From: an uncultured Peptococcaceae bacterium
GTDB lineage: Bacteria > Bacillota > Dehalobacteriia > UBA4068
Length of the DNA stretch: 64,000 nt
Direction: 5' to 3'
Assembly: GCA_949289995.1 (NCBI GenBank)
Contig: CASEQE010000009.1
Span: forward strand, 5,706 to 69,705
In this document: piece by piece, positions 5,748 through 56,434 of the stretch
Layout: the number at the start of each line of letters is the position of its first letter
How positions within the stretch are numbered: the first letter of the stretch is position 1
Position numbers and translations under genes: made by a program
Notes under the pieces: model-generated
The model's database searches: none
The model's input: the letters and a program-made list of their open reading frames with translations, nothing else
What the model was told of the DNA's origin: nothing

Positions 5748-5825
5748 AAAATCACCACCTATAAATCTTTTGTCCTTCCGTTTACTTGAAGTGATTTAAT
5801 TATAGATTTTCTTCCTTGAAAAACA

Positions 5826-5832
5826 TGTCGAA
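5826..5832 (+). promoter_or_regulatory. Candidate Spo0A box (TGTCGAA) upstream of spoIIE; a second box-like TGTCGCA lies on the minus strand at 5858-5864
   Basis: Exact match to the 0A-box heptamer about 80 nt upstream of the spoIIE start. In Bacillus, spoIIE is Spo0A~P-dependent. Confidence 0.3.
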
Positions 5833-6001
5833 ACAGTGAAAAGAACGGAAATTAGTTTGCGACAAATATTGAGCAAACTATATTTTTCCAGATAAAAATC
5901 GCATTTCCACAATTTGGATTTGGGTTTATATTGCACAATATGTTAAAATAACATATATTCTGATGAATATTTGTTCTAGATAAAAAACAAGGGGGCATAT
6001 T

Positions 6002-6829
6002 ATGAAACGTATTCAAAAACAAATATGGGCTATCTTGATTATTGCTTTGCTGGTTTTGTTTCCCATAAGCGCCAGCGCCGTCAGCAACGTAAATGATTGT
6101 AGCGATTGTGGCGCTAATACGATCTGTAACGACATTACTCGCGCCGCCAACGACGTCTGTCCTGATCAAGAGAACCCATGCACAACAAACAATTTGGGCG
6201 ATACATATACAAACGCCCGGCAAGAAAAGACGGCAAATCCATATGACGTCCAAGACGTCAACGCAAATGCACAAAAGAATGATGACCGTGCCGCTTTTTC
6301 ATGGACAAGCCTAGTCCAATACTTATTTGGCAATAGCGATTTCGCTCAATATTTAGCCAATCTTTTCGCTATCCAAGCGCCGTCTACCGCGCAAGAGATT
6401 GATACGGAAACGCCGCAAATGGTTACCTATCAATCCCCTAGCTTGGAAGGATATGCGCAACAGGTATTAGATTTGGTGAATCAAGAACGGGCAAAGGAAA
6501 ATTTACCGTCTTTAAGTCTGGATCCTAATCTGGCTGCCGCCGCACAAATCCGCGCCGGGGAAATCAGTCTGAGCTTTAGCCATACCCGTCCCGACGGTAG
6601 CAGCTGTTTTACCGCGTTAACGGAAGCTGGCGCTACTTATAATAAAGCCGGCGAAAATATTGCAATCGGTCAAAATACGCCGGAAGAAGTAGTGGCAGAC
6701 TGGATGGCTTCACCGGGACATAGAGATAATATTATGAACGCCAATTATAGCCGTATCGGCATCGGCGTAGAGGAAAGCACCGACAATCAATACGGCGGCT
6801 ATGCCTGGACACAATTCTTTGCCGATTAA
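6002..6829 (+). CDS. Secreted CAP/SCP/PR-1 domain protein (YkwD-like), Cys-rich after the signal peptide
   Basis: N-terminal signal peptide. The C-terminal CAP domain has GHRDNIMNANYSRIGIG and GENIAIG motifs. Confidence 0.7.
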   Translation: MKRIQKQIWAILIIALLVLFPISASAVSNVNDCSDCGANTICNDITRAANDVCPDQENPCTTNNLGDTYTNARQEKTANPYDVQDVNANAQKNDDRAAFSWTSLVQYLFGNSDFAQYLANLFAIQAPSTAQEIDTETPQMVTYQSPSLEGYAQQVLDLVNQERAKENLPSLSLDPNLAAAAQIRAGEISLSFSHTRPDGSSCFTALTEAGATYNKAGENIAIGQNTPEEVVADWMASPGHRDNIMNANYSRIGIGVEESTDNQYGGYAWTQFFAD

Positions 6830-6925
6830 ACTTTGCTGCTAACCATATCGTCATTGACGATCTATCCAACCGACATACTGCATAAAAACGCCTGACAAAC
6901 CCTTATCTTGCATAGTATTTACAAC

Positions 6926-6964
6926 AAATCGCCGTCTTCTGCCAAAGAAAACGGCGATTTTGTA
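6926..6964 (+). terminator. Rho-independent terminator after the CAP-domain gene
   Basis: A 10-bp stem (AAATCGCCGT / ACGGCGATTT) is followed by TTTGT. Confidence 0.5.
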
Positions 6965-7243
6965 CAAAAGCAAACGTAAATCTCTTCCATTATATTTTAT
7001 TTCCCTGAAAGCAAGCTTATTGCCTTTGCTTTATGCACTGGCCAATCATTATGCCAGAGACGTTTGCTTTTCTTTGCGATCAAAATAAAAACCTTATATT
7101 TTCAGGGATAAATTTTCATTTATTGTTCATAAAAAATTCAGGTAACAATTTACTTGAAATCAAATTGGCAAATTATGCTAAAATATATAAAGCACGAATG
7201 GTATTAGAAAAGCTATAATAAATAAAGGAAAGGGGTATAAAGC

Positions 7244-8281
7244 ATGATCAATTTTGAAAAAATTCGGGTTGTCCAGTATGGTTGCGGTAAAATGAGCAAA
7301 TATATCCTGCGCTATTTATATGAAAAAGGAGCAGAAATTGTTGGCGCCATCGACGTCAATCCAGAAATCGTCGGTATGGATATTGGCGACTTCGCTGATT
7401 TAGGCTGTCATTTAGGCGTTGCGATTCGTGACGATGCCGACGCCGTTTTGGACGAATGCGATCCGGATATTGCGATTCTCACTTTGTTTAGTTTCATGGA
7501 TGACGTATACCCGCATTTCGAACGCTGCGCTTCCCGTGGCATTAACGTAATCACCACCTGCGAAGAAGCCATTTACCCCTGGACCACCTCCGCGGCTATC
7601 ACCAATAAATTGGATAAAATGGCCAAAGAAAACGGCTGCACCATCGTTGGTTCCGGTATGCAGGATATTTATTGGATTAATATGATCGGCTGCGTAGCCG
7701 GTGGCGTACACCGTATCGATAAAATCGAGGGAGCGGTTAGCTACAACGTAGAAGACTATGGTCTTGCTTTGGCCGAAGCCCATGGCGCCGGTATGACGCC
7801 AGAAGAATTTGAAGAAAAAATCGCTCACCCCACTACCTTGGAACCTAGCTATGTATGGAATTCCAATGAAGCCTTGTGCAATAAAATGGGTTGGACGATT
7901 AAATCGCAAACCCAAAAATGCGTGCCTTATTTCTACGACAAGGACTTATATTCCGCAACGTTAGGGCGCACGATTCCCAAAGGCAATTGTATTGGTATGA
8001 GCGCCGTGGTCACCACCGAAACTTTCCAAGGACCGATTATCGAAACGCAATGCATTGGTAAAGTATATGGCCCGGACGATGGCGATATGTGCGATTGGAA
8101 AATTACTGGCGAACCGGATACCACCTTCTTTGTACAAAAACCTGCCACGGTAGAACACACTTGCGCCACCATCGTCAATCGTATTCCCGATGTACTGAAC
8201 GCCCCTGCAGGTTATATTACGGCAGAAAAACTGCCGGAGGCCCACTATTTATCCTGGCCTATGCATATCTATATTGACTAA
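7244..8281 (+). CDS. DapB-like NAD(P)-dependent oxidoreductase (2,4-diaminopentanoate dehydrogenase / native amine dehydrogenase family)
   Basis: N-terminal Rossmann motif ([21 protein letters not shown]) and a 345 aa length are typical of Ord/nat-AmDH enzymes. RBS AGGAAAGGGG precedes the start. No ornithine-fermentation partners (ora/ort) are nearby. Confidence 0.45.
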
Positions 8282-17908: not shown

Positions 17909-19387
17909 GTGGAGAATTTTGATGTACTGAAAGACGTCTCCGAAAGAACTGGGGGGGATATCTATTTAGGCGTGGTTGGACCGGTGCGTACCGGGAAATC
18001 AACCTTCATCAAGCGGTTCATGGAAACATTGGTCCTTCCCAACATAGAAGATTTCCATGAACGCAACCGGGCATTGGACGAAACGCCGCAAAGCGGAGCC
18101 GGCCGCACGATCATGACCAGCGAACCCAAATTTATCCCCGCCGAAGCCGTAGCTGTGGAGGTGGCGGATGGAATTACTATGCGGGTCAGACTTGTGGATT
18201 GCGTGGGTTATGGCGTGGAAGGCGCCTTAGGTTTTATGGAAGAGGATGAACCGCGCATGGTGAACACGCCTTGGTTTAGCGAACCGATCCCCTTCAACGA
18301 AGCCGCGGAACTGGGAACACGCAAAGTGATTAGCGAACACAGCACCATTGGTTTGGTTATGACTACCGACGGCAGCTTTGGCGATTTGCCTAGAGAAAAC
18401 TTTGTTCCTGCAGAGCAAAGAGTCGTTGGGGAACTGAAAGAATTGGGCAAACCCTTTGTTATTATTCTCAATAGCGCTCATCCGGATGAAGATACCACGT
18501 TGGATTTGGCACAAGAGTTAAGCGATCAATACCAAGTGACGGTAGTACCAGTGGATGCTCTGCGTATGGACTATCAAGATATTTTAGAAATATTGAATGC
18601 TTCTTTATATGAATTCCCGGTTAGCGAAATCAACATCACTCTACCGCGCTGGGTAGAAGAATTGGAAGCGGAACATCCACTACGACAAACTCTAGAACGG
18701 CAAGTAGGGCAATCGGTTGCCAATGTGAGCAAAGTACGGGATATCAGCCAACTGCTTACCGATCTACAAATCGAAGACGTCACCGGCGCTATCGCATTAT
18801 CCAACTTGGATTTAGGCCAAGGAGCAGCTTCCATCAAAATAGATGCTGCCGACGGCTTATTTAATCAAATCCTCAGTGAATATGCCGGCACGCCGATTGA
18901 AGGAGAACATACCATTTTAAAAGTGATTCGCCAATTTGGTCAAGGCGCCCGAGAGTGGAGAAAGATTGCGCCGGCCATGGCGGAAGTTTTAGAAAACGGT
19001 TACGGCGTAGTTACGCCGCAGTTGGAAGAAATGTATCTAGAAGAACCGGAACTCATCAAACAAGGCGGCCATTTCGGCGTAAAATTGCGGGCCTCTGCCC
19101 CCAGCTATCATATTATTCGCGCCAATGTTTCAGCGGAACTAACACCTTTAATCGGCACGGAAAAACAATGCGAAGAATTGGTGCGCTATATCATGAGTGA
19201 ATTTGAGGACGATCCGCAAAAACTGTGGAGCACCAATATTTTTGGCAAATCTCTGCATGATTTGGTATCCGAAGAAATTAGCGGCAAGCTAACCCGTATG
19301 CCGGACAATGCACAGGCCAAATTAGCTGAAACCCTACAAAGAATCGTCAATGAAACCGGCGGCGGACTGATTTGCATCATCATCTAA
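17909..19387 (+). CDS. spoIVA: Stage IV sporulation protein A (spore coat basement-layer ATPase)
   Basis: Walker A motif (GPVRTGKSTFIKRF), 492 aa. It lies downstream of gpsA, as in B. subtilis. Confidence 0.9.
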   Translation: MENFDVLKDVSERTGGDIYLGVVGPVRTGKSTFIKRFMETLVLPNIEDFHERNRALDETPQSGAGRTIMTSEPKFIPAEAVAVEVADGITMRVRLVDCVGYGVEGALGFMEEDEPRMVNTPWFSEPIPFNEAAELGTRKVISEHSTIGLVMTTDGSFGDLPRENFVPAEQRVVGELKELGKPFVIILNSAHPDEDTTLDLAQELSDQYQVTVVPVDALRMDYQDILEILNASLYEFPVSEINITLPRWVEELEAEHPLRQTLERQVGQSVANVSKVRDISQLLTDLQIEDVTGAIALSNLDLGQGAASIKIDAADGLFNQILSEYAGTPIEGEHTILKVIRQFGQGAREWRKIAPAMAEVLENGYGVVTPQLEEMYLEEPELIKQGGHFGVKLRASAPSYHIIRANVSAELTPLIGTEKQCEELVRYIMSEFEDDPQKLWSTNIFGKSLHDLVSEEISGKLTRMPDNAQAKLAETLQRIVNETGGGLICIII

Positions 19388-27529: not shown

Positions 27530-27895
27530 TCTGCCGAGCAAGCCTATAAGCCGGGTTCTGTCGTGGATGAACATCTATCTAAGCATACCGTTGCCGGTAT
27601 GCTTTAGCGACCGCAACGAAAAGCAGACGGGCCGCCCTATGCTTTTCTATAAACCGCAATGGTTCAAGGGTCTTGCTCCGAATGGGGTTTACCTAGCCGC
27701 CTGGTCTCCCAAGCGCTGGTGCGCTCTTACCGCACCGTTCCACCCTTACCGGCAAACGCCGGCGGTTTGTTTCTGTGGCACTGTCCTTAAGGTCGCCCTC
27801 ACCGGCCGTTAGCCGGCATTCCGCCCTATGGAGCCCGGACTTTCCTCAAGCGCGCCCTTGCGGGTTACGCTTGCGTCCATCCAGCTTACTCGGAA
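27530..27895 (-). ncRNA. rnpB: RNase P RNA (rnpB), bacterial type A architecture
   Basis: The minus strand carries P4 GAGGAAAGTCCGGGCTCCATAGGGC, GGTAAGGGTGGAACGGTGCGGTAAGAGCGCACCAGC and the 3' ACAGAACCCGGCTTAT. A P1 helix pairs CCGAGTAAGCT with AGGCTTGCTCGG. Length is about 366 nt. Confidence 0.85.
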
Positions 27896-27944
27896 ATTCT
27901 ACATTCTTTACTTATTTTATTCTGCTTTTATTCTGTCGCCAAAC

Positions 27945-28682
27945 TTATTCGTTATCGGTAAATAAAGCCCTACCGCATTTCTCACAATACGTTCGCTGAC
28001 CAGATACTGTCCTTTTATATAAAACCGGGGTAACTATAGTATGACATCCATCGCAAACGTGCTCTGATGACAAATACGCCACCGGCGATCCGCCAAATTT
28101 GTGCTGATTGGCCTCAAACCAAGCTAACTCCCCTTTTTCAATAGAGGGAAGCAAAGCTGCAATTTCTGCTGCCACTTCTGCCTCTTTATGCGCATAGTCT
28201 TCGCATATTTCTTTATAATCTAATTTCAATCGCTCAAAAGATTGACATTCTTCTTCAATTTTTTGTTTTAAATCTACCGCCTCTTGTTCAATTTGCTGCA
28301 AGTGATGAATTGCTTCTTCATCTTGGGTCTTAAGAGCTTCCATTTTTTCTCCTAAGGCGGTCATTTGCGCCTCTCTGGCGGATAAGACCTTGACCGTAGA
28401 GGTGGAGCCATCATACATTGCATCCTGTTCTTTTTGCAATTTATGATTTACATCCGCCAACGATTCTGCATATTCTTTACGATTTTGCAATAATTCACCG
28501 CGCATACAAGCCAATTGCTGCCAACGACGTTTATCAGCTTCATATTCCGATTTGATCTTTGCCATTTGGCAATAAGTTTCACTATGAAGTTTTTCTTGTT
28601 CCAACAATTTTTGCGCGTTTTGTAATTTTTGCAATTGATGTAGCTGCTTCAACATAATACTCTCCCTGTCCTCATCTTCCAC
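27945..28682 (-). CDS. Coiled-coil protein with C-terminal C4 zinc-ribbon (DUF164/zf-RING_7 family)
   Basis: Long Q/E/K-rich coiled coil, then CDGCHTIV...YCEKCGR. Adjacent to trmK, as in the Bacillus yqfN/yqfO region. Confidence 0.6.
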   Translation of the reverse strand: MEDEDRESIMLKQLHQLQKLQNAQKLLEQEKLHSETYCQMAKIKSEYEADKRRWQQLACMRGELLQNRKEYAESLADVNHKLQKEQDAMYDGSTSTVKVLSAREAQMTALGEKMEALKTQDEEAIHHLQQIEQEAVDLKQKIEEECQSFERLKLDYKEICEDYAHKEAEVAAEIAALLPSIEKGELAWFEANQHKFGGSPVAYLSSEHVCDGCHTIVTPVLYKRTVSGQRTYCEKCGRALFTDNE

Positions 28683-29382
28683 AACGACATAAAACTTTAT
28701 CTATTTGAGCGATAGAATTCTGCAATTGCTGCAAACGTTGAGCCGCGTTTTCTCCCGGCATGGCCGAAACCTGCTCAATTAATGATAACAAATCCTTACG
28801 TTTTAGCTGCAAAAAATTGGCTAAAAAAGGATGGGATCCCGCTAAAAGACAGGGACCAAAAGTTAATTCGTCCTCATCCAAACACATTTCGCCATGCTCA
28901 GCGGCAATAACTTCATAGTAAAAACCGTTATCCAACGCCAGCTGCTCCGCCACAATCCGCCACCCGTTATCCATTAACCAGCGGCGCAAGGCAGCCGTAT
29001 TTTTTTGCGGCTGCAACACCAATCTCTTTGTTTGACTGATGACCAAGGGCTGGCGGGATAAGATGTCTTGGATTAAATAACCGCCCATACCGGCTATGGT
29101 TATCGTCTCCGCTTCCCCGGGTTGTAAAGGCGCCAAACCATCGCCTAAACGAACGTCGATTTGGCGGGAAAGCGAAAGCAAATCTACCAATTGGCAAGCG
29201 TTTTCATAAGGTCCAACAGCCCTATCCACTGCGACAACAAAAGGACATATGCCGTTGATCACCAGATAAACGGGCAAATAATTATGATCCGTTCCAATAT
29301 CTGCCGCCGTTTTTCCCGGTAAAACAAACTCGGCTACGGCGTGCAAGCGATTACTGAGTTTCACTTGCATCTTCTCGTTCAC
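28672..29382 (-). CDS. trmK: tRNA (adenine22-N1)-methyltransferase
   Basis: 236 aa with an N-terminal SAM-MTase motif (DIGTDHNYLPVYL). YqfN/TrmK family. Confidence 0.7.
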   Translation of the reverse strand: MNEKMQVKLSNRLHAVAEFVLPGKTAADIGTDHNYLPVYLVINGICPFVVAVDRAVGPYENACQLVDLLSLSRQIDVRLGDGLAPLQPGEAETITIAGMGGYLIQDILSRQPLVISQTKRLVLQPQKNTAALRRWLMDNGWRIVAEQLALDNGFYYEVIAAEHGEMCLDEDELTFGPCLLAGSHPFLANFLQLKRKDLLSLIEQVSAMPGENAAQRLQQLQNSIAQIDKVLCRCGR

Positions 29383-29899
29383 CTCCAGATAAAGGGATGG
29401 TGCGAGTAACTTTTTCGCGCACTTCCATTACGTGCGCTTCAGCGCAAAATCACCAATTTTGGCTTATGCTGCTATTATACCATATGCAAGACTCTTGCGC
29501 CACAAAAAATTTACTTTTACCTGGATTTCGCAAAGCGCAGCGCTTACCAATAACCTCCATGCTGAATGATATCGTCTATCGTTTTCCTTCCTAACCAGCG
29601 GTATGCAAGCGAAACTTTACTTATTACCGTCTGTTTTACACTACTTCCAAGTTGATAAGTTTCGCCAAAACATGACTTTATTTTCTTTCATAAAAGGATA
29701 TCTCTTTATCCTTAAAGCGGTTAAAAGAGCAGATTATGTTTATTAAAAGTATTTCACGGTATAAAAAAGGTTATTGTTTAGCCACATAAAATATGTATGC
29801 CATTTTAAAACAAAAACTATACTTCATAAAAAAAATATGCTATATTGATGTAAATCAACATAAACCAAGCCAACAACTATAAAGAAAGAAAGGTAGCAG

Positions 29900-31303
29900 A
29901 TGGAAAATTGCCAAATCCAAAAAGTAGAATTATTGGTGCAAAACGCGCCCGGCGTTTTGGGCAGAGTCATTGCACATATACGCAATGAAGGCTGGAATAT
30001 CAAACGCCTATATGTGGATGAAACGGAAAATAGCGCCGTTTCTAAAATGGAAATCGATATAGAAGGTAAGCACAGCAAATTGGCGCAAGTTTTGGAACGA
30101 ATGTGTGCCATAGACTGTGTGATCAGCGTTATGCTCAACGGCCAAACCAAAACCAAAAACCAAGTTGTCTTACCCAGCGCCGAACCACGTATCACTATGC
30201 AACCGCCCCGTATCCAGGATAAGGCTGCTAACGTCTATCGGGTACTGACCATTAATCCTGGTTCTACATCTACCAAATTTGCCATCTACGACGATGACGA
30301 ATCCATTTTTATCCACACGATTCGTCATAGCAAAACAGATTTAAGCGGTTTTCCTACGCCAGCTGCACAAAAAGATTATCGAAAACAATGTATTCTCGAA
30401 GTTTTACAGCAGGTTGGTATGGATTTGCAATCTTTAGATGCCGTAGCTGGCAGAGGCGGTTTGCTCAAACCTATGGAAAGCGGCGTATATTTGGTCAATG
30501 AAGCCATGTTGAACGACTTGCAATCCCCAGCCGCCTCCATTCATGCATCCGCACTCGGCGCCATTATCGCCCATGAAATTGCCGCGGAACAAAACATCAA
30601 CGCCTATGTGGTAGATCCGGTGGTGGTAGATGAAATGGATCGCAACGCCAAACTAACCGGTTTGCCCGGCGTAGAACGAACTAGCATCTTTCATGCCTTA
30701 AATCAAAAAGCCATTGCCCGTAAACTTTCCGCAAATATTGGTAAACCCTATGAAAACTGCCGTTTGATTATCGCCCATTTGGGCGGCGGTATTACCATCG
30801 GCGCTCATCGTTATGGACGGGTTATCGATGTAAACGATGCCCTGGCAGGCGAAGGCGCCTTCACGCCTGAGCGCAGCGGCAGCATTCCTGCTTTGCCTTT
30901 AATCAAAATGTGCTTTTCTGGAGAATATACGGAACAAGAAATGATTGATAAAGTGGTAAAAAATGGCGGCATACAAGGATATTTAGGCACAAACGATATA
31001 CGTAAAGTAGAAAAAATGATGAACAACGGCGATGAATTTGCCGCCTTGGTTTTGGATTCTATGGCCTATCAAGTTTCAAAAGAAATCGGCGCCATGTGCG
31101 CCGTTTTGGAAGGCCGGGTGGACGCGATTATTCTCACCGGCGGTCTAGCCAATTCTATTCGATTTACCGGAGCGATTAAACAAAGAGTAGACAGATTGGC
31201 GCAAGTATACGTTTTTCCTGGCGAAGATGAAATGCAGGCCTTAATGGCCGGCGTTTTACGGGTATTGCGCGGCCAAGAACCGGTGGCGATATATGAGTCC
31301 TAA
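29900..31303 (+). CDS. buk: Butyrate (short/branched-chain acyl) kinase with N-terminal ACT-domain fusion
   Basis: Residues about 1-75 form an ACT-like βαββαβ segment (VELLVQNAPGVLGRVIAHIRNEGWNIKRLYV). Residues about 110-467 are an ASKHA butyrate kinase (INPGSTSTKFAIYDD...IAHLGGGITIGAHRYGRVID). Confidence 0.75.
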   Translation: MENCQIQKVELLVQNAPGVLGRVIAHIRNEGWNIKRLYVDETENSAVSKMEIDIEGKHSKLAQVLERMCAIDCVISVMLNGQTKTKNQVVLPSAEPRITMQPPRIQDKAANVYRVLTINPGSTSTKFAIYDDDESIFIHTIRHSKTDLSGFPTPAAQKDYRKQCILEVLQQVGMDLQSLDAVAGRGGLLKPMESGVYLVNEAMLNDLQSPAASIHASALGAIIAHEIAAEQNINAYVVDPVVVDEMDRNAKLTGLPGVERTSIFHALNQKAIARKLSANIGKPYENCRLIIAHLGGGITIGAHRYGRVIDVNDALAGEGAFTPERSGSIPALPLIKMCFSGEYTEQEMIDKVVKNGGIQGYLGTNDIRKVEKMMNNGDEFAALVLDSMAYQVSKEIGAMCAVLEGRVDAIILTGGLANSIRFTGAIKQRVDRLAQVYVFPGEDEMQALMAGVLRVLRGQEPVAIYES

Positions 31304-31444
31304 GCCGGCGTAAGCCCGCCTTAGCGGCAAAAAAGAACCGCTATCCAGCCTGGGACTGGATAGCGGTTCTTTTTGCTTGGATTCGCAATCTTTGCATAGG
31401 CGTTAACTTAGTCCACGCCAATCAACGCCCAGCCATGGGAAATG

Positions 31445-32446
31445 CTATCTTTCCTCTCTAAAATAATTAAAACCACAATGCTTAGGTATATTATGCTCTT
31501 TGCTCTGACGTACGCTCGTCAGAATCAGCACGAAAATCGTGGCCAGATAGGGTAGCAAATCATATATTTCAATCGGTATACCCAAAGGGATATACATACG
31601 AAGAATCGATAAACCGCCAAAAACCAAAGCGCCAAATATAGCCCGGCTGGGAGACCAAGTGGCAAAAATAACCAAAGCAACGGCAATCCATCCCCGGCCG
31701 CCAACGCAATTGTGAACCCATACGCCATACGCTGTGACCATACTAATATACATACCGCCAATACCACAAATGCCGCCGCCAATCACGGTGGCTAAATATT
31801 TATAGCGGTTTACGGCAATACCTGCCGCATCCGCCGCCGCCGGATCTTCGCCCACAGCCCGCAAATTCAATCCGGCACGGGTTTTATTCAAAAACCAAGC
31901 CAAAAGCAAAGCCACGACGATTGCGATATAAACCAGCAAGTTATAAGAAAAAAACAGCTTATTGATCCAGTATATCCATCGATTATCCGCAGCCAATTCT
32001 ACTAACCCCGGAAACAATGGGTTGTTGGCAAACGTCGCTTTCGCGCCGGTGGAAATCGCCATAAATTTTGTAGGCGAAGCGGAAGCGATAATCTCGCCAA
32101 AAAAGTTGGCGAACCCAATACCAAAAATGGTTAGTGTCAAACCGGTAACGTTTTGATTGGCCCGTAAAGTAATAGTAAGAAAACCGTAAATTAAAGCGCC
32201 AAACGCACCGCATACAAAGGCTGCCAGCAGAGCAATCAGCAAACAAATGATCCCGGTTAATTCTCCTAGCCACATTTCAGCAAAATATACACCCGCTAAA
32301 CCGGCAATGGCGCCCATAAACATCATGCCTTCTACGCCTAAATTCAAATTGCCAGATTTTTCGGTAAGAATTTCACCTAATGTGCCAAAAAGCAAGGGAG
32401 TGCCAGCCAAAACGGCCGCATAAAGCAAATTAACCAAATTATCCAC
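31445..32446 (-). CDS. ABC transporter permease (CUT2/BMP-nucleoside type), subunit 2
   Basis: 333 aa, about 9 TM segments. Its start overlaps the stop of the upstream permease by 8 nt. Confidence 0.75.
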   Translation of the reverse strand: MDNLVNLLYAAVLAGTPLLFGTLGEILTEKSGNLNLGVEGMMFMGAIAGLAGVYFAEMWLGELTGIICLLIALLAAFVCGAFGALIYGFLTITLRANQNVTGLTLTIFGIGFANFFGEIIASASPTKFMAISTGAKATFANNPLFPGLVELAADNRWIYWINKLFFSYNLLVYIAIVVALLLAWFLNKTRAGLNLRAVGEDPAAADAAGIAVNRYKYLATVIGGGICGIGGMYISMVTAYGVWVHNCVGGRGWIAVALVIFATWSPSRAIFGALVFGGLSILRMYIPLGIPIEIYDLLPYLATIFVLILTSVRQSKEHNIPKHCGFNYFREER

Positions 32447-35542: not shown

Positions 35543-36484
35543 TTATTTTCTGGCCAAAACCATTTTAGCCCGCATGGCAATGGCTTCCGGCGTTAAACCA
35601 TAATGTTTCAGCAATGCTTCTGGACTGCCGCTTTGACCAAACTGGTCGGCTATGCCCAGGCGAGACATAGGCGTTGGGCAATGCTCGGCCAAAGTTTCCG
35701 CAATAGCCGATCCCAAACCGCCAATGATACTATGTTCTTCCACAGTTAAAGCGGCGCCGGTATGGGTAGCCTGATCAATGATAAACTCTTCGTCCAAAGG
35801 TTTAATGGTGTGGATGTTAGCTACTGCAGCCTTAATGCCTTCCGTGCGCAACAATTCGGCAGCTTCCAATGCCTGATCCACCATCATACCACAGGCAAAA
35901 ATCACAATATCCGATCCAGGCAACAGCAATTCTCCGGAAAGCGGTTTGAAAGAACGGTTTTCTCCCGGCAATTGAGGCAATGCTAACCGTCCCAATCGCA
36001 AATATACCGGCCCATCATAAGCGGCCGCCCAACGAACCATTTGCTCCGTTTCCCAGGCATCCGCCGGAGTTAGAACCGTCATATTGGGCAAACTACGCAT
36101 TAAAGAAACGTCCTCAATCGCTTGATGAGAACCTCCATCTTCGCCAACGGTAATTCCGGCATGCGTGGCGGCAATTTTAACGTTCAGCTTAGGATAGGCC
36201 ACGCTATTACGAATCTGCTCAAAAGCCCGACCGGTGGCAAACACCGCAAAAGAACTAACAAAAGGAATTTTACCGCAGGCAGCCAAACCAGCCGCCACGC
36301 CAATCATATTTTGTTCAGCAATACCGCAATTGATAAACCGTTCCGGCGCTGTTTGTTTACTGTCCGCCGTTTTGGTAGATTTGGATAAATCCGCATCCAA
36401 TACGACAATATCGGTATTTTCCTTGGCTAAAACAGCCAAAGTTTTGCCATATGCTTCCCGGGTCGCTATTTTGATTTTATCCAT
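35543..36484 (-). CDS. Transketolase, C-terminal section
   Basis: Pyrimidine-binding and C-terminal domains, 313 aa. Start MDKIKIATREAYG after GGGAGG. The N-terminal-section gene is immediately upstream. Confidence 0.85.
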   Translation of the reverse strand: MDKIKIATREAYGKTLAVLAKENTDIVVLDADLSKSTKTADSKQTAPERFINCGIAEQNMIGVAAGLAACGKIPFVSSFAVFATGRAFEQIRNSVAYPKLNVKIAATHAGITVGEDGGSHQAIEDVSLMRSLPNMTVLTPADAWETEQMVRWAAAYDGPVYLRLGRLALPQLPGENRSFKPLSGELLLPGSDIVIFACGMMVDQALEAAELLRTEGIKAAVANIHTIKPLDEEFIIDQATHTGAALTVEEHSIIGGLGSAIAETLAEHCPTPMSRLGIADQFGQSGSPEALLKHYGLTPEAIAMRAKMVLARK

Positions 36485-36485
36485 A

Positions 36486-37301
36486 TCAATATCCTCCCAA
36501 TTGAGCCAAAGCCTGCTCCGCCTGCTCCTGATTGGGGGCGGACCCATGCCAACCGACCTGATTTTCCATAAAATCTACGCCTTTCCCTTTAATCGTATCG
36601 GCAATAATTACAGAGGGACGGTCTTTTTCCGCTTTTGCCCAATTGATTGCTGCCCGTATTGCCTGACAATCATGACCATCTATCCGCTGCACTTGCCAAC
36701 CAAAAGCCTGCCATTTGGCTTCCAAGGGTTCCGGTGACATAACATCCTCAATATTACCGTCAATTTGCAGGCGGTTATGATCCACAAAGGCAATCATTTT
36801 GCTCAAATGATAGTGAGAAGCAAACATAGCCGCTTCCCAAACCTGGCCTTCTTCCGTTTCACCATCACCCAAAACGGCATATATGTAGTAGGAATCCCCA
36901 TTGATTTTCCCTGCCATAGCCATACCGCAGGCGGCGGACAAACCTTGCCCCAGGGAACCGGTGGTCATATCCACACCAGGGGTTTTATGCATATCCGGAT
37001 GTCCCTGCAACTGACTGCCCAATTTACGCAAGCCAGCTAAATCTTCCACCGGGAAATATCCTTTTAAAGCCAACGCCGCATACAATGCTGGCGCAGCATG
37101 TCCCTTGCATAATACCAACCGATCTCGTTGAGGCCAGTCTGGTTTTGACGGATCGATCTGCATCTGGTCGAAATATAATGTAGCCAAAATATCCGTAGCG
37201 GAAAGCGAACCGCCGGGATGGCCGCTTTTGGCAGCCGCCAACATCATAATTGTTTGACGGCGCATTTGCAGGGCCAATTCTTCGGGAGAGCGAAACTCCA
37301 T
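36486..37301 (-). CDS. Transketolase, N-terminal section (TPP-binding)
   Basis: GHPGGSLS...GDGE...H motifs, 271 aa. Confidence 0.85.
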   Translation of the reverse strand: MEFRSPEELALQMRRQTIMMLAAAKSGHPGGSLSATDILATLYFDQMQIDPSKPDWPQRDRLVLCKGHAAPALYAALALKGYFPVEDLAGLRKLGSQLQGHPDMHKTPGVDMTTGSLGQGLSAACGMAMAGKINGDSYYIYAVLGDGETEEGQVWEAAMFASHYHLSKMIAFVDHNRLQIDGNIEDVMSPEPLEAKWQAFGWQVQRIDGHDCQAIRAAINWAKAEKDRPSVIIADTIKGKGVDFMENQVGWHGSAPNQEQAEQALAQLGGY

Positions 37302-38511: not shown

Positions 38512-41127
38512 TTAATTCTTTCCGCAACAGTTTTTATATTTTTTACCGCTGCCGCAGGGGCATGGATCGTTGCGACCAATTTTCTTTTCCGTTCGCACCG
38601 GCTGTTTTTTAACCGGTGCACCATCACTGCGGTTTTCCTGTATATCCTTACGTTCCTTGGGAGCCTCCACCAAGCTTGCAAACATCACCAGGCGGGTTAC
38701 GCCGGATTGAATGTCCTCAATCATGCTTTGGAACATATCATAGGCTTCCCGTTTGTATTCCACCAATGGATCTCGCTGTCCATAGGCGCGCAGGCCAATG
38801 CCTTGGCGCAATTGATCCATAGCATCCAAATGATCCATCCATTTGGCGTCGGCAGTTTGCAACACGGCCAGTTTTTCTAGTTTGCGCATAATTTCGCTTC
38901 CCATTTGTTCTTCCCGCTCTTTATAGTAGCGATGGAAACGCTCTTGGAAGAAGGGGGCGATTTCATCATGGGATAACGTTTTCAATTCCTCTTCTTGCGG
39001 CAAATATTTAGGCAAATACTCGGACATATCTCGTAATAATGCGGACAATTCCCATTCTTCCGGATAGTTGCTGGCGCCGGCATAGCGGGCTACAATACGG
39101 TTTACGGTAGCATCAATCATCGCCAAAACGCTTTCGGAAATATCTTCCTCGGTTAAAGCGCGACGGCGTTCGGCATATATTACTTCTCTTTGCTGATTCA
39201 TCACGTCATCATAATCCAAAACGTGCTTCCGCATATCAAAATGGCGTTCTTCCACGCGTTTTTGTGCCGTTTCGATGGAACGGGAAACAATAGCCATATC
39301 AATCGGCGTACTGTCGTCCATTCCCACCCGATCCATAATTCCGGCAATATTGTCGCCGCCAAACCGGCGCATCAAATCATCCTCCATGGAAATAAAAAAG
39401 CGGGTGCTGCCCGGATCCCCTTGCCGTCCGGCTCTGCCTCGAAGCTGATTATCGATACGGCGGCTTTCATGCCGCTCCGTGCCAATAATATGCAAGCCGC
39501 CCAAAGCCACCACCTCTTCATGCTCCGCTTTGGTCTGCTGTTGATATTTGGCGATTAAATTATTTCTTTCTTCATTGCTGTATTCCACATCTCCGTGGGC
39601 ATTCATTTCCGCTTCCGCCATAAACTGCGCATTACCGCCTAAAACAATATCGGTACCACGGCCAGCCATATTGGTGGCAATGGTAATCGCTCCTTTTCGT
39701 CCGGCTTGGGCCACAATTTCCGCTTCTTTTTCATGAAATTTGGCGTTTAATACCTGATGAGCCAAACCACGACGGCTTAACATCTTACTCAGACGTTCCG
39801 ATTTTTCAATACTAACCGTACCTACCAAAACCGGGCGCCCTTTTTCATGTTCGGCGGCGATTTCTTCCACTACCGCTTCAAATTTACCATTTTCCGTACG
39901 ATATACGATATCCGGGTGATCCACACGAATCATCGGCAAATTGGTGGGTACCTCTACCACATCGAAATGATAAATCTTGCGAAATTCTTCTTCCTCCGTT
40001 TTCGCCGTACCAGTCATACCAGCCAACAAGTCGTACATACGGAAATAATTTTGAAAGGTAATGGTGGCCAAAGTTTGGCTTTCCCGCTCAATTTTTACTT
40101 TTTCTTTTGCCTCGATAGCTTGGTGCAGGCCTTCGCTATAGCGACGGCCAAACATTAAGCGGCCGGTAAATTCGTCGACGATAATGACTTGACCATCTTT
40201 GACCACATAATCCCGATCTCGTTTATATAAAACCTGCGCCCGCAAAGCTTGATTGATATGGTGGGCCAATTCAGTATTGGCGTCATCGTAAAGATTCTCC
40301 ACCGCCAAGGCTTTTTCCACTTTGGCTACACCTTGCTCCGTTAAGGCCACCTGACGGGTTTTAATATCTACGGTATAATCCTGATCCTCCCCTTCCCGCA
40401 AACGTGGTACAATGTTGGCCGCCTGATAGTACCGCTCGGAAGATTTGGCGGAAGGCCCGGAAATAATCAAGGGCGTACGCGCTTCGTCGATCAAAATGCT
40501 ATCCACTTCGTCTACAATGGCATAATGCAACGGGCGCTGCACCATAGCTTGCAGCGAAAAGGCCATGTTATCCCGAAGATAATCAAAACCAAATTCATTA
40601 TTGGTACCATAAGTAATATCAGCGGCATAAGCTTGGCGTTTCTGCGGCGCCATTAAACCATGCACCACCAATCCCACCGATAAGCCTAAAAATTTATATA
40701 CACGCCCCATCCATTCGCTGTCACGACTGGCCAGATAATCATTGACGGTAATCACATGCACACCCTTACCGCTTAATGCATGTAAATAAGCTGGGGCGGT
40801 AGCCACCAAAGTTTTACCCTCGCCGGTTTTCATTTCGGCGATACGACCGTCGGATAGCACCATACCGCCAATCATTTGCACATCAAAGTGACGCATGCCC
40901 AAGGTACGATAGGCAGCCTCTCGTACCACAGCAAAAGCTTCTTGTAATAAGGAAGAAATTTCAGCGCCTGCCTCCAGACGGCGTTTAAACTCGCCGGTTT
41001 TTGCAGCCAACTCCTGGTCGGAAAGAGCATGAATCTCCGGCTCCAGAGCGTTGATACCGGCTAATATTTTCGTATATTTTTTAATATCTTTGGCGTTATC
41101 GTCAAACAATTTCGCTAAAAAACCCAT
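38512..41127 (-). CDS. secA: Preprotein translocase ATPase SecA
   Basis: 871 aa with DEAD motor motifs and a C-terminal zinc-binding tail, [14 protein letters not shown]. Confidence 0.95.
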
Positions 41128-42790: not shown

Positions 42791-43783
42791 ATGGATATTA
42801 TCGCCCAAGTAAGGGAAAAAGCCAGAGCGCAGCATAAGCGCATCGTGTTGCCGGAAGGCACAGAAAAACGGACGGTGGCAGCGGCAGCGCAGTTGACAAA
42901 AGAGCATATTGCCGACGTTACGCTATTGGGATCGATAGACAAAATCAAAGCCATTGCAGCAGCTGAACAGGTGGATTTAAATGGTGTATCTATTATTGAC
43001 CCGGAAAAAGACCCACACTATAATCAATTTGCCGAAGAATTTTGCCAATTGCGGGCAAAAAAAGGTATGACAATGGATAAAGCCTTGGAAACGATGAAAA
43101 ATCCTTTATATTTCGGCGTCATGATGGTCTATAAAAATATATGCGACGGTATGGTAGCCGGCGCGGAAAACGCTACCGGCGACGTATTGCGTCCGGCACT
43201 GCAAATTATCAAAACCAAACCCGGCATCACCACCGTCTCCGGGGCGTTCATTATGGTAACCCAAGATGCGCATTTCGGCAAGGATGGTATTATGGTATTT
43301 GCCGACTGCGCTGTCAATCCAACTTTAACTGACGAACAAATGGCAGAAGTTGCCTATTGTAGCGCCCAAACTGCTCAAAACGTGGTAGGTATTGAAAATC
43401 CAAAGGTTGCTATGCTGTCCTTCTCCACCAAAGGCAGCGCCAAGCATGAGCTGGTGGACAAAGTAGCTTCCGCTACTGCCATCGCCAAAGAACGGTATCC
43501 TCAATTAACCGTGGATGGCGAATTGCAACTGGATGCCGCAGTAGTACCTTCGGTTGGTGAATTCAAAGCCCCTGGCAGCCCGGTAGCCGGACATGCCGAC
43601 GTACTCATTTTCCCCGATTTGCAGGCGGGTAACGCTTGCTATAAGGCTGTACAACGTTTTGGACATGCTCAAGCCATTGGCCCCATTTTGCAAGGTATGG
43701 CTAAACCTGTGAACGATTTATCCAGAGGTTGCAGCGTAGACGATATCGTCAACACCGTTGCACTGGTATGCTGCCAAGCATAA
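42791..43783 (+). CDS. pta: Phosphate acetyltransferase (short form) / phosphate acyltransferase
   Basis: 330 aa with Pta/Ptb family motifs (GMVAGA, DCAVN, SRGCSVDDIVN). RBS GGAGGG. Confidence 0.8.
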   Translation: MDIIAQVREKARAQHKRIVLPEGTEKRTVAAAAQLTKEHIADVTLLGSIDKIKAIAAAEQVDLNGVSIIDPEKDPHYNQFAEEFCQLRAKKGMTMDKALETMKNPLYFGVMMVYKNICDGMVAGAENATGDVLRPALQIIKTKPGITTVSGAFIMVTQDAHFGKDGIMVFADCAVNPTLTDEQMAEVAYCSAQTAQNVVGIENPKVAMLSFSTKGSAKHELVDKVASATAIAKERYPQLTVDGELQLDAAVVPSVGEFKAPGSPVAGHADVLIFPDLQAGNACYKAVQRFGHAQAIGPILQGMAKPVNDLSRGCSVDDIVNTVALVCCQA

Positions 43784-43908: not shown

Positions 43909-44592
43909 TTAAACTACGGTACCATGTTTTTTCTTTCTCCATGCATGGATGCTTCGATATACCAAATAGAGCAATAAAGAATTCAGACCCGCTTTCAATA
44001 AATTAAACGGTATCAAGCCAACCAAAAGCAACCCCTTCACCATCTGATAAGCGGTTACTGCCGCTTCTGAATAAGCGCCAGGTGTATAGCCTCCGCTTAG
44101 ACCGTCGATAAATATCCGGGCTGCTTCGCTTACGGAAACATCCATCATCACCTTGGGAGTAAATATAAAATTTAAGGGAATCATGATTAACGCCATGGAT
44201 ATGCTGCCACAAATTAAAGCAAGGATCATCCCCTTATTGGTTCTTTTGCAAGCGGCATAAATTGCATAGGCCACCAAAACCAAAGTACCGGAAGCAATCA
44301 TGTGCATCAAAAAGCCGATTGGTCCGTCGTGACCAAACAAAAACGCCTGGATAAAAGAGGCCACAGTTAAAACAATCATTCCCGGCCCCCAACCCATGGT
44401 AAAAGCGCACAACAGAATCGGTACATCCGCCATATCATATTTTAGGAAAGAAGCGGCAGGCACTAAGGGAAAACAAAGAAAGACCAATACCGAGGATACG
44501 GCAATCAACATTGCCATGCGTACCAGCTGCAAAGTGCTATCTTTTCCACCAATTGTTGCCGAATTCCGGCCTAAAAATTTTTGCTGCGACAT
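43909..44592 (-). CDS. ribU: ECF transporter S-component, riboflavin type (RibU-like)
   Basis: Polytopic small membrane protein immediately downstream of an FMN riboswitch. Start ATG 44592 after AAAGGAG. Confidence 0.7.
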   Translation of the reverse strand: MSQQKFLGRNSATIGGKDSTLQLVRMAMLIAVSSVLVFLCFPLVPAASFLKYDMADVPILLCAFTMGWGPGMIVLTVASFIQAFLFGHDGPIGFLMHMIASGTLVLVAYAIYAACKRTNKGMILALICGSISMALIMIPLNFIFTPKVMMDVSVSEAARIFIDGLSGGYTPGAYSEAAVTAYQMVKGLLLVGLIPFNLLKAGLNSLLLYLVYRSIHAWRKKKHGTVV

Positions 44593-44617
44593 ATGGATTT
44601 GCTCCTTTTCCGGCTGC

Positions 44618-44818
44618 TTCCAAAAAAACGCCCCATGCACATGCATGGGGCGGAGGCTAGCAATAACGCTACACTTCATCTTCTTTCATCCGGACTATAC
44701 CGTCGGCTCAGGAATCACACCTGATCAACGTTTGCCTACCATAGCGAAAACGCTCGCGGGCTAAGCGAATACGATCGCCTTACCGCCGGTGGGGACTTGC
44801 ACCCCGCCCCGAAGACAG
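44618..44818 (-). promoter_or_regulatory. FMN riboswitch (RFN element) with intrinsic-terminator expression platform
   Basis: Minus strand: CTTCGGGGCGGGGTGCAAGTCCCCACCGGCGGTAAGG ... GAGCCGACGGTATAGTCCGGATGAAAGAAGATGA. This aligns near base for base with the B. subtilis ribD RFN. It is followed by hairpin CCGCCCCATGCATGTGCATGGGGCG plus T7, then the ribU RBS. Confidence 0.9.
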
Positions 44819-44827
44819 CCTAATTGA

Positions 44828-51064: not shown

Positions 51065-52141
51065 TTGTATACGAAAAAATACGCAATAAACAAATTGCAC
51101 GCTGAAAAAATTTGCGCCTTGTTTTTGGCGTTAGCTTTGACGTTGGCCGGATGGTCGATGCCAGCTGTTGCCGCCGATGGCGCAATGCCTCACGTTTATG
51201 TAGGCGGACAATCCATCAGTATTTTTCTGCACAATCAGGGCGTCACCGTAGTGGGTTTTGCGCCAGTAATCACGGCAGACGGACAAGAAGTCAATCCTGC
51301 GGTAGATGCGGGATTGCAAATGGGCGATTATATTAGTGAGATCAACGGTAAAACAATTAACAGCCAGCAGCAACTGACGGAAATCATTAGCCAATGGACG
51401 GCGGAAGATCCGCCGCTGGAGCTGCTTTACAGCCGCAACGGCGAACGGGATGTCGCCTGGGTAACGCCGGTCTTTTGCAGCCAAAATCAATGTTATCGTA
51501 TCGGCTTATATGTGCGGGATAATACCGCCGGTATTGGTACGTTAACCTTTTATGAACCTCAAAGCGGCGTTTACGGCGCTTTAGGACATCAGGTCAGCAA
51601 TGCGGATCAAGATAGCGGTGAAGATGCTTTAGGCTCTATCGGTAGAGCGCCTATTTCGGGGATACGTATCGGTAAAGCCGGTTCCCCCGGTGAAAAAATG
51701 GGCGTATTCATCGCCGAGCCTACCGGCGTAGTGCAAGAAAACACGGTATACGGCCTATTTGGTATTTTATACCAAACGCCCCAACCGCTTTATTATTCCC
51801 AAACCATGCCGTTGGCACAAGTAAACGAAGTCACCACAGGCCCCGCCGAATTATTGACGGTAATCGACGGGGAAGAAATTGAATCCTTTACCATTAATAT
51901 TGTCAAAATTAACGCAAATTATAAGTCCAGCGGCAAAGGTATGGTCATAGAAATTACCGACGATGAATTGATTGAAAAAACTGGCGGTATCATCCAGGGT
52001 ATGTCTGGTTCGCCAATTATTCAAAACGGTAAGTTGGCCGGCGCAGTAAGCCATGTATTTGTCAACGATCCTTTGCACGGTTATGCCTGCTTTGCACAAT
52101 GGATGTGGGAAAAAGCCGAACCGTTAGAGAATGCGGCGTAA
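51065..52141 (+). CDS. spoIVB: SpoIVB peptidase (S55 serine peptidase with PDZ domain)
   Basis: Signal peptide, PDZ (GLQMGDYISEINGKTI) and catalytic GMSGSPI. Apparent TTG start after GGAGG. Upstream of spo0A, as in Bacillus. Confidence 0.85.
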   Translation: MYTKKYAINKLHAEKICALFLALALTLAGWSMPAVAADGAMPHVYVGGQSISIFLHNQGVTVVGFAPVITADGQEVNPAVDAGLQMGDYISEINGKTINSQQQLTEIISQWTAEDPPLELLYSRNGERDVAWVTPVFCSQNQCYRIGLYVRDNTAGIGTLTFYEPQSGVYGALGHQVSNADQDSGEDALGSIGRAPISGIRIGKAGSPGEKMGVFIAEPTGVVQENTVYGLFGILYQTPQPLYYSQTMPLAQVNEVTTGPAELLTVIDGEEIESFTINIVKINANYKSSGKGMVIEITDDELIEKTGGIIQGMSGSPIIQNGKLAGAVSHVFVNDPLHGYACFAQWMWEKAEPLENAA

Positions 52142-52434: not shown

Positions 52435-53202
52435 ATGGAGAAAATCATAAAAATATTAATCGTCGATGACGATAGAATCTTCGCTTCGGCATTAGAAGAA
52501 TATTTCTCCTCTTTAGATAACTATCAAGTATGCGCGAATGCAGAAAACGGACAAAAGGGCCTAGAGTTAATTGAAAAATATCATCCGGACGTGGTCATCT
52601 TGGATTTGGTTATGCCTCATTTGGATGGCATAGGCGTCCTCGAAGCTTTAAACTCCAATCCCTTATCCGATATGCCGCACATCATTTTTATCACTTCCTT
52701 TGCGCAAGCCAACTTAACCAAAAAGGCCATGGAACTAGGCGCAGCTTACTACATGATGAAACCTTTTGATTTAGATACCTTGGAAAAAAGAATACGCCAA
52801 ATTACCCATGTCAATGAAGCCGAAGTCATTACCGTGGGCAAAACAGCGAATATGGAAGTAGAAGTCACTCGAATCATTCACCAAATGGGCGTTCCAGCTC
52901 ATGTCAAAGGATATCAATACCTGCGTGACGCCATTTTATTGGTTACGAAAGAAGTCAATCTAATGGGCGCCGTAACTAAAGAATTATATCCGATGATTGC
53001 GGATAAATACAATACGACCGCCTCCAGAGTGGAACGGGCAATTCGCCACGCCATTGAATTGGCTTGGGATCGCGGTAATGTAGAAATGATGAATCGTTAT
53101 TTCGGATATACCATCAATATCGAAAGAGGAAAACCTACCAACTCGGAATTTATAGCGATGATCGCCGATAAACTGCGTATGGGCGATAAAATGGTTATGT
53201 AA
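52435..53202 (+). CDS. spo0A: Sporulation master response regulator Spo0A
   Basis: REC domain (ILIVDDD...[14 protein letters not shown]) plus the Spo0A_C DNA-binding domain ([14 protein letters not shown]). Confidence 0.95.
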
Positions 53203-56337: not shown

Positions 56338-56434
56338 TGGCGGAAGCGTGTGGGAATCGAACCCACCCAAGACGGGCGTACCGCCTCGCGTCGGATTTGA
56401 AGTCCGCGTCAGCCACCAGGCCAAATCCGCCCCC
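56338..56434 (-). tRNA. selC: tRNA-Sec (selenocysteine tRNA, anticodon UCA) candidate
   Basis: 97 nt. The 3' end ACGCTTCC-G-CCA is identical in form to the E. coli selC 3' end. 5-bp T-stem with GGTTCGATTCC. Anticodon loop CTTCAAA. 6-bp D-stem with a 4-nt D-loop. Long variable arm. 8-nt acceptor with two G·U pairs and one G×A mismatch. selA lies directly upstream. Confidence 0.65.

Follow-up and report, generated by a model that had tools for sequence, protein, structure and literature searches.

We investigated the open reading frame (ORF) at 29900..31303 (+ strand) of a 64-kb stretch of DNA (64,000 nucleotides of contig CASEQE010000009.1, hereafter the window) from an uncultured Peptococcaceae bacterium. 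This single ORF starts with ATG, encodes 467 residues plus a stop codon and combines, from the N- to the C-terminus, an ACT module, a linker (residues 80-112) and a complete butyrate kinase (Buk). The ACT-Buk fusion is real, undescribed and conserved among hundreds of uncultured bacteria of guts and digesters; both of its parts and its design principle are known, and it is not unique to the window. Our tentative reading, to which we give nearly an even chance, is that ACT-Buk would be a butyrate/branched-chain acyl kinase set by free branched-chain amino acids (BCAA), valine being the likeliest, with a catabolic, ATP-yielding role and an unlinked phosphotransacylase.

A Shine-Dalgarno-like GAAAGG (29888..29893, + strand), read from the sequence letters, lies 6 nt 5' of the ATG, and an identical copy of the protein (P0001) was found on two independently assembled ENA contigs from two samples. 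A first-pass annotation of this DNA had proposed an ACT module, a linker and a complete Buk within one 467-aa ORF, and this was upheld by hidden Markov model (HMM) searches together with structure prediction. The gene is also monocistronic by its geometry, as had been claimed, because the upstream trmK-like gene (TrmK-type methyltransferase, 28672-29382, - strand) is divergent and the downstream ABC-permease gene (31445-32446, - strand) is convergent.

The N-terminal module (29912..30136, + strand) is, by sequence comparison, an ACT domain of the IlvN/IlvH type, that of the small regulatory subunits of acetohydroxyacid synthase (AHAS). The Pfam family ACT_AHAS_ss (PF22629) matched residues 10-75 with 42.0 bits in the whole protein and with 45.2 bits when the N-terminus was scanned alone (gathering cutoff 27), and the weaker Pfam matches in the full protein were to generic ACT families and to Acetate_kinase. 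Searched against the PDB as a single sequence or as a 28-sequence family profile, the N-terminal part retrieved AHAS regulatory subunits only; the family profile matched the Arabidopsis subunit 6u9h (9e-15) and E. coli IlvH 2f1f (7e-10), with further profile matches to Thermotoga 2fgc, yeast 6u9d and IlvN 6lpi/2lvw. The AlphaFold2 (AF2) model of the module presents strands at residues 5-14, 33-41, 47-56 and 74-79 and helices at residues 19-30 and 58-69, with a predicted local distance difference test score (pLDDT) of 82-91. In a Foldseek search of this N-terminal model against the PDB, the valine complex of IlvN (5ypp) came first, with a root-mean-square deviation of 1.0-1.9 Å over about 75 residues, and the other top matches in the same range were yeast (6u9d), plant and bacterial AHAS regulatory subunits (2pc6, 2f1f) and the ACT domain of 3-phosphoglycerate dehydrogenase (PGDH). 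The annotation had described this part as ACT-like and had allowed that it might be a divergent leader; both the HMM and the predicted structure give an ACT fold. No Pfam match to ALS_ss_C, the second domain of IlvH-type subunits, was found in the fusion protein.

According to PMC11893703, which cites Kaplun 2006, valine is bound in IlvH by N11 and N29, which come from the two monomers of an ACT dimer, and by L9, L16 and V35, and the first ACT domain of IlvH is the valine-binding one (PMC13381585). In the HMMER alignment to IlvH (2f1f), residue n of the fusion corresponds to IlvH residue n-4. The conservation of the equivalent positions was scored over 120 homologues, namely the best clusters at 90% identity from a search of a 5.8-billion-protein database. 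N15 (IlvH N11) is kept in 119/120 and N33 (IlvH N29) in 120/120, followed by L20 (IlvH L16) in 118/120, V13 (IlvH L9) in 111/120 and V39 (IlvH V35) in 106/120. G18 is kept in all 120 homologues, and we take it to be the equivalent of IlvH G14 and of C. glutamicum IlvN G20. Mutation of the Gly-hydrophobic-hydrophobic loop of C. glutamicum IlvN led to loss of inhibition by all three BCAAs (PMC8406616). Mean column conservation drops from 0.75 in the ACT module to 0.40 in the linker and rises to 0.81 in the kinase, and the alignment indicates that the valine-site residues of the ACT module are conserved under selection. The earlier guess of allosteric control by an amino acid therefore gains support from the AHAS-type ACT and from the equivalents of IlvH N11, G14, L16 and N29, conserved at 98-100%; such control would still be an extrapolation from AHAS.

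The fusion family also presents a feature of its own in this region, an invariant Trp32 within the motif E30-G31-W32-N33, where AHAS subunits read R-G-[FY]-N. The extended motif I-R-x-E-G-W-N-I is present in 119 of the 120 best homologues and reads V-R-N-E-G-W-N-I in the remaining one. In a sub-group of the family (P0070, P0072, P0081, P0099, P0120 etc.), the loop between strands β2 and β3 of the ACT module carries an acidic or hydrophobic insertion (alignment A1, columns 59-80; e.g. '...DDDFLVISPAEFAPFAADS...') of up to 27 residues vs a median of 5, and Pfam at times misses the ACT domain in these proteins.

The linker (30137..30235, + strand) is predicted to be disordered and is variable in sequence. 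Its pLDDT in the AF2 model, where the kinase fold comes after it, is 42-48 around residues 89-100, and across the 120 homologues it spans 31-38 residues, varies by in-frame indels alone and keeps K108 as its sole invariant residue, so that the low pLDDT and the poor conservation between ACT and kinase agree with the linker proposed earlier. Residues 113-467 (30236..31300, + strand) form a butyrate kinase domain of the ASKHA acetate/butyrate kinase family. TIGR02707 matched residues 114-461 with 495.7 bits (cutoff 289.1), covering model positions 1-348 of 351, and NF002834 gave 500.7 bits (cutoff 222). The kinase part aligned end to end with Thermotoga maritima Buk2 (1saz/1x9j, E=1e-107), kinase-domain residues 2-352 being placed onto chain residues 2-353; with this full-length match and a TIGR02707 score above the cutoff, the butyrate kinase is complete, as first described. 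N119, K126, D239, H265, H293, R325, E442 and E444 are found in 120/120 homologues and R185 in 118/120. By motif, not by superposition, we take N119, R185, H265, R325 and E442 to be acetate kinase N7, R91, H180, R241 and E384. Since the catalytic-motif residues are invariant, the kinase is presumably catalytically competent.

The fusion had been regarded as a singular oddity, which it is not, as its family comprises at least 120 clusters at 90% identity. The 120 best homologues, drawn from NCBI, JGI, ENA and Logan assemblies, are all uninterrupted fusions of 456-498 aa, with 62-75% identity over 97-100% of the query, and where they bear a name it is 'butyrate kinase' only. Among the 150 best representatives at 50% identity, one full-length fusion (P0045) covers the whole family, and the other strong matches are canonical Buks of about 355 aa that align on residues 112-466 only (best 54% identity). 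In ten longer Buk proteins that were scanned (420-753 aa), no ACT domain, and hence no second ACT-Buk fusion, was found; each is either a Ptb-Buk fusion or joined to domains of other kinds (chorismate mutase, ABC substrate-binding protein, SAF). The single 50% representative and these ten ACT-less proteins speak against independent ACT-Buk fusions elsewhere. Additionally, an ACT-specific metagenome scan yielded 80 loci, most of which, judging by sample names, would come from termite-gut-type JGI samples, and the uninterrupted fusion architecture is present in 67 metagenome loci. A scan of genome contigs with generic-kinase patterns, which is no phyletic census, recovered at least three fusion loci.

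In a rough neighbour-joining (NJ) tree, which carries no support values, the fusions are monophyletic with respect to the canonical Buks. All the spirochaete-labelled members are in a 125-tip clade, and those labelled Bacillota belong to a 26-tip clade external to it. The single 50% representative, the lack of ACT in the longer Buks and this monophyly together make it appear that the fusion arose once. Most members are spirochaete-labelled, the named homologues being Treponema sp., Spirochaetia and Spirochaetaceae metagenome-assembled genomes (MAGs); the P0008 cluster contains 'Clostridiales bacterium' proteins, and another fusion member (P0103/L089) also lies amid sporulation genes. The window itself is assigned to an uncultured endospore-forming Bacillota, not to a spirochaete, because of the affinity of its SecA (38512-41127, - strand), which shares 94% identity with a protein of a 'Firmicutes bacterium' MAG and has its farther named relatives in Clostridia/Bacillota, and of its sporulation genes (spoIIE, spoIVA, spoIVB, spo0A; 3336-5747, 17909-19387, 51065-52141, 52435-53202); an SLH-domain protein is also encoded. 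As the identity across phyla is at least 60%, the simplest reading suggested by the sequences is that the already-fused gene moved between phyla, in either direction.

The most divergent ACT-Buk found (L163, 10001-10204, on the 150-kb contig Ga0082212_10000065) has an ACT that is 44% identical, takes a basal position among the fusions in the NJ tree and may inform the origin of the fusion. Stand-alone ORFs of 164-219 aa, 36-44% identical to the fusion ACT, were also encountered in the ACT-specific scan (L162, L164, L166, L167, L170); their sequences resemble those of common AHAS small subunits, the closest unfused kin of the module.

The genetic surroundings of the kinase were then compared with those of canonical Buk, described in the first-pass annotation as a protein of about 355 aa encoded next to ptb. 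With a Ptb HMM built from canonical buk loci and applied to both canonical and fusion flanks, this linkage was confirmed: a PTA_PTB gene was present within the flanking sequence of 69 of 77 canonical buk loci, in most cases immediately upstream on the same strand, and several of the 8 exceptions had almost no sequence upstream. For the fusion, no PTA_PTB gene was found within 10 kb in any of ten long, mutually different neighbourhoods (window, L003, L004, L083, L084, L086, L088, L089, L090, L091). In the 64-kb window the only PTA_PTB-family gene detected by the Ptb HMM is pta (phosphate acetyltransferase, 42791-43783, + strand), which scored 379.9 bits with TIGR00651 (cutoff 311) and only 54-79 bits with the Ptb models (cutoffs 400-475). 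It is, as had been stated, the sole phosphotransacylase of the window, and it is a possible, unproven, partner of ACT-Buk.

A Ptb-type gene does stand beside the fusion in 4 of about 80 metagenome loci. It is directly upstream on the same strand in L100 (3-1810) and L160 (427-1584), convergent and abutting the fusion in L151 (257-2637), and convergent 1.4 kb downstream of it in L159 (2-3288). These genes are of the phosphate-butyryltransferase type, with 396 bits vs an equivalog cutoff of 410.5, and of the four fusions, those of L100, L151 and L159 could be assigned a position in the tree, in each case within the spirochaete-labelled clade. The statement that the kinase has no partner thus holds for the gene order here and for 10/10 long neighbourhoods, and it fails for the family as a whole. 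The orphan arrangement is the norm of the family, as a tendency and not as a rule, and the fusion can fill the buk slot behind ptb.

Spirochaete contigs L173 (466-6009) and L174 (872-6116) contain a canonical operon that begins with an orthologue of this Ptb type (72-76% identical); it consists of ptb, a plain buk, a gene of 175 aa and a ferredoxin-type 2-oxoacid oxidoreductase (Fer4, POR_N, TPP/POR), and a third spirochaete contig, L172, carries a ptb-buk pair (5555-7590). The plain Buks of L172-L174 have 335-375 aa, lack ACT and are 48-50% identical to the window kinase domain. From its gene content, the L173/L174 operon could well encode the classic BCAA fermentation of spirochaetes; it is distinct from the ACT-Buk lineage. 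Close to the fusion itself, a 2-oxoacid oxidoreductase cluster was seen 7-10 kb away in L003 and L004. The clustering of 615 neighbour ORFs revealed no recurrent functional neighbours beyond lineage-specific synteny (M23 peptidase, SpoU methylase, DUF1361, MoxR, MatE; plus one antisense shadow ORF), and neither ilvB nor ilvI was seen to adjoin the fusion, be it in the window or in the neighbourhoods of homologues.

Some individual neighbourhoods hold genes of related metabolism. In a Treponema-type lineage (L086, 4898-9979; also L114 and L149), an aconitase-family gene ends 22 bp before the fusion on the same strand, with a class IV (BCAA-type) aminotransferase 4 kb upstream in L086, and a gene of the isocitrate/isopropylmalate dehydrogenase family lies near the fusion in L151; these neighbours may be coincidental. 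Genes for DegV (fatty-acid-binding, FakB-like) are located 5-6 kb downstream of the fusion in L088 (16633-17526) and L090 (16681-17499), the latter adjoining an acc/fab fatty-acid synthesis cluster, and this proximity, seen in two unrelated neighbourhoods only, may be due to chance.

Compared with canonical Buk (TIGR02707; Thermotoga Buk2), residues 113-466 of the fusion give a full-length alignment and are about 54-57% identical to their nearest canonical relatives, whereas the fusion has about 112 extra N-terminal residues (ACT and linker), forms its own clade and is usually not beside ptb. The AHAS small subunits (IlvN/IlvH/Ilv6, PF22629) are the best sequence and structure matches for residues 5-85, share N15, G18, L20, N33 and V39 at the positions that correspond to N11, G14, L16, N29 and V35 of IlvH (PMC11893703), and in the minimal IlvN consist, like the fusion module, of a single ACT only. 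Unlike them, the fusion carries its ACT covalently on a kinase and not non-covalently on a thiamine-diphosphate-dependent synthase, has no ALS_ss_C and shows Trp32 where the subunits have Phe or Tyr. Its scores with the equivalog models of AHAS regulatory subunits were 39-42 bits for both TIGR00119 (cutoff 56.9) and NF008864 (cutoff 119). Because it falls below the TIGR00119 cutoff, lacks ALS_ss_C, is not accompanied by ilvB and is joined to a kinase, we consider, on these sequence criteria, that the protein shares the AHAS ACT domain but is not an AHAS regulatory subunit.

An ACT and a catalytic domain on one chain are also found in aspartate kinase, PGDH and phenylalanine hydroxylase. The ligand sites of these enzymes form between paired ACT domains, and the PGDH ACT is among the top fold matches of the module, but the catalytic partner of the fusion is new. 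To our knowledge, no acetate, propionate or butyrate kinase of the ASKHA type has been described with a fused ACT domain, and no mention of a butyrate kinase together with an ACT domain was found in the searched literature. A report on Treponema and branched-chain fatty acids in a digester (PMC8674449) held no relevant statement on such an enzyme. The Buk-Ptb pair of the Listeria/Bacillus bkd locus is likewise a Buk-family enzyme acting on branched C4-C5 acids, and reversible (PMC10026030); unlike the fusion, this Buk is operon-linked to ptb and bkd and has no ACT.

The closest physiological precedent comes from spirochaetes, in which, according to PMC8085960, a C4-C5 acyl kinase (EC 2.7.2.14) yields ATP from the fermentation of Val, Leu and Ile and uses 2-methylpropanoate, 2-methylbutanoate, butyrate and valerate with several NTPs. 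Most fusion members are spirochaete-labelled, and for that kinase the source gives a biochemical description only. We know of no sequence tied to this activity. The canonical ptb-buk-oxidoreductase operon is at least as good a candidate for it as the fusion.

In the mechanism that we propose, the ACT domains of two chains of the Buk oligomer would pair, by analogy with AHAS regulatory subunits, and form amino-acid sites at their interface, to each of which one chain would contribute its Asn15/Gly18/Leu20 loop and the other its Asn33; ACT pairing between subunits is known in the IlvH dimer (PMC11893703). Occupancy of the site would be relayed to the kinase through the flexible linker of about 33 residues. 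The kinase would catalyse the last, ATP-yielding step of the sequence amino acid, 2-oxoacid, acyl-CoA, acyl-phosphate, acid plus ATP, with the amino acid acting on it as a feed-forward signal. A phosphotransacylase encoded elsewhere would supply the acyl-phosphate: Ptb in some members and, here, either the Pta at 42791 or a Ptb that is not linked. Which amino acid binds, whether it activates or inhibits and which way the flux runs are points that we infer. We favour the catabolic direction because of the ptb-linked members, of the Ptb type that they have in common with the 2-oxoacid oxidoreductase operon and of the spirochaete precedent for ATP-yielding BCAA use (PMC8085960).

Several observations weigh against this catabolic reading. 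No ptb, oxidoreductase or BCAA transporter recurs across the ten long neighbourhoods (10/10), and the 64-kb window is devoid of any BCAA or acyl-CoA genes. In the AF2 monomer model of the full-length protein, the placement of ACT relative to the kinase is unreliable, given a predicted template modelling score (pTM) of 0.64 and the disordered linker. Finally, ACT of the same subtype inhibits in AHAS, so that feed-forward activation is a guess.

The same enzyme could run in the reverse direction. Exogenous isobutyrate, 2-methylbutyrate or isovalerate would then be converted to the acyl-phosphate and salvaged to acyl-CoA, with feedback inhibition by Val, Ile or Leu, and the acyl-CoA would feed branched-chain lipid primers or reductive carboxylation to BCAA. 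We regard this as unlikely, though it is the main alternative and one with real merits. It is favoured by the AHAS feedback module with its intact valine-site residues, which is inhibitory in AHAS (PMC13381585, PMC8406616), and by the Listeria Buk/Ptb, which runs in the activating direction on extracellular 2-methylbutyrate (PMC10026030). A stand-alone, separately terminated and allosterically switched gene is also a more natural fit for a committed entry step than for the final step of an operon-encoded pathway, and the separate canonical ptb-buk-oxidoreductase operon of spirochaete contigs would cover catabolism if fusion carriers have one. Growth of many rumen and oral treponemes depends on isobutyrate or 2-methylbutyrate. 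However, no recurrent linkage of the fusion to fatty-acid initiation or BCAA biosynthesis genes was observed, the aminotransferase of L086 (4 kb) and the acc/fab cluster of L090 (5-10 kb) being single cases, and the salvage route likewise needs a phosphotransacylase. In its full form, this alternative would make ACT-Buk the first kinase of the ASKHA acetate/butyrate family with a built-in amino-acid switch, a BCAA-inhibited committed entry to salvage in treponemes and uncultured Bacillota whose fused gene moved between phyla. We consider the full form rather improbable; if true, it would give a molecular handle on the dependence of treponemes on isobutyrate or 2-methylbutyrate.

It is quite improbable, in our opinion, that the ACT module no longer senses BCAA and serves as an oligomerisation or stability module, or binds another ligand, so that the protein would be a kinase with an N-terminal appendage. 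ACT domains do have a wide variety of ligands, and some have a structural function only; the ACT domains of PGDH, Rel and homoserine dehydrogenase were among the Foldseek matches, with similar scores, and the ALS_ss_C domain of IlvH-type subunits is missing. The pocket may have changed as well, because the invariant Trp32 places E-G-W-N where AHAS has R-G-[FY]-N. Nevertheless, the equivalents of the IlvH valine-site residues are the most conserved positions of the domain (98-100%), which a structural role does not need, and the family profile matches AHAS regulatory subunits only, the minimal ACT-only IlvN included.

The separation from ptb (0/10 long neighbourhoods and about 4 of 80 loci overall vs 69/77 for canonical buk) would also fit an orphan generator of acyl-phosphate for signalling, which would form it from acid and ATP according to amino-acid status, to serve regulators or other proteins as a donor of phosphoryl or acyl groups. 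In favour of this are the sensor domain carried by the kinase and the sporulating host, which has Spo0A; in Clostridium acetobutylicum, a Spo0A-related signalling role has been proposed for butyryl-phosphate. This idea is speculative and, to us, highly improbable: linkage to response regulators does not exceed chance, some members are in the ptb-buk arrangement, and the Pta of the window could consume acyl-phosphates. Finally, a merger of an ilvN-like gene with buk through an error of sequencing, assembly or gene calling, or a start at an internal Met, has nothing specific in its favour, beyond several other long 'Buk' database representatives that resemble gene mergers, and is effectively excluded by the same architecture in the 120 best clusters (independent assemblies) and in 67 metagenome loci, by the independent assembly of the same sequence in two samples, by the conservation of ACT at the protein level with only in-frame changes of the linker, and by the ribosome-binding site before the first ATG.

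Upstream of the gene, the region 29383..29899 had been described as an AT-rich leader. According to the ORF map it is a divergent intergenic region of 517 bp, AT-rich indeed (GC 0.30-0.40), which presumably holds the promoters of both divergent genes; as a leader it is not borne out, with no Rfam family and no sign of transcription as a 5' untranslated region. In 29383-29899, no riboswitch or T-box was found among Rfam families at the gathering threshold or E<=1, bar chance eukaryotic matches, and a pattern scan of its + strand gave no strong sigma-70 match. In fusion homologues the upstream gap is 22-211 bp; therefore, the length of 517 bp is not conserved. Downstream, the 141-nt gap 3' of the stop codon had been called terminator-less. 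This description is refuted by a bidirectional intrinsic terminator at 31329..31375, in which a perfect 19-bp stem with a 7-nt loop has an A-tract before it and a U-tract after it; the RNA fold of the gap has an energy of −56.7 kcal/mol (z=−4.31), and 0/200 shuffles were equally stable. This hairpin is the terminator common to the convergent ACT-buk and permease genes.

Other features of the window were identified in the course of the analysis. A full-length class A RNase P RNA (27531-27892, - strand, 285 bits) accounts for a GC-rich island (0.59) as well as for spurious ORFs at 27567-27999. For a spore-forming member of the Bacillota, an RNase P RNA of class A agrees with the Moorella/Peptococcaceae-like relatives of its SecA. 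An FMN riboswitch (44674-44820, - strand, 116 bits) is located directly upstream of the ORF 43909-44679 (- strand), which encodes a 256-aa membrane protein with weak likeness to an ECF-transporter permease (MPN527 family) and is probably, from its sequence and position, a riboflavin uptake gene under FMN control. A tRNA-Sec gene (56342-56434, - strand) adjoins selA (L-seryl-tRNA selenium transferase, 56528-57916, - strand), and the organism therefore makes selenoproteins. Lastly, transketolase is split into N- and C-terminal halves encoded by separate adjacent genes (35543-36547 and 36486-37301, - strand), with an overlap of about 60 nt between the listed ORFs.

The usual view of acetate, propionate and butyrate kinases is that of unregulated equilibrium enzymes, in which flux is set by expression and substrate supply. 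The conserved AHAS-type sensor of ACT-Buk suggests that some anaerobes, among them termite-gut treponemes and uncultured spore-forming Bacillota of digesters, may gate substrate-level phosphorylation or acid activation on their BCAA status. Proof of such gating would improve annotations that now read 'butyrate kinase' and could supply a compact valine-responsive kinase module for engineering. It would also refine models of gut communities with respect to amino-acid fermentation and the turnover of branched short-chain fatty acids.

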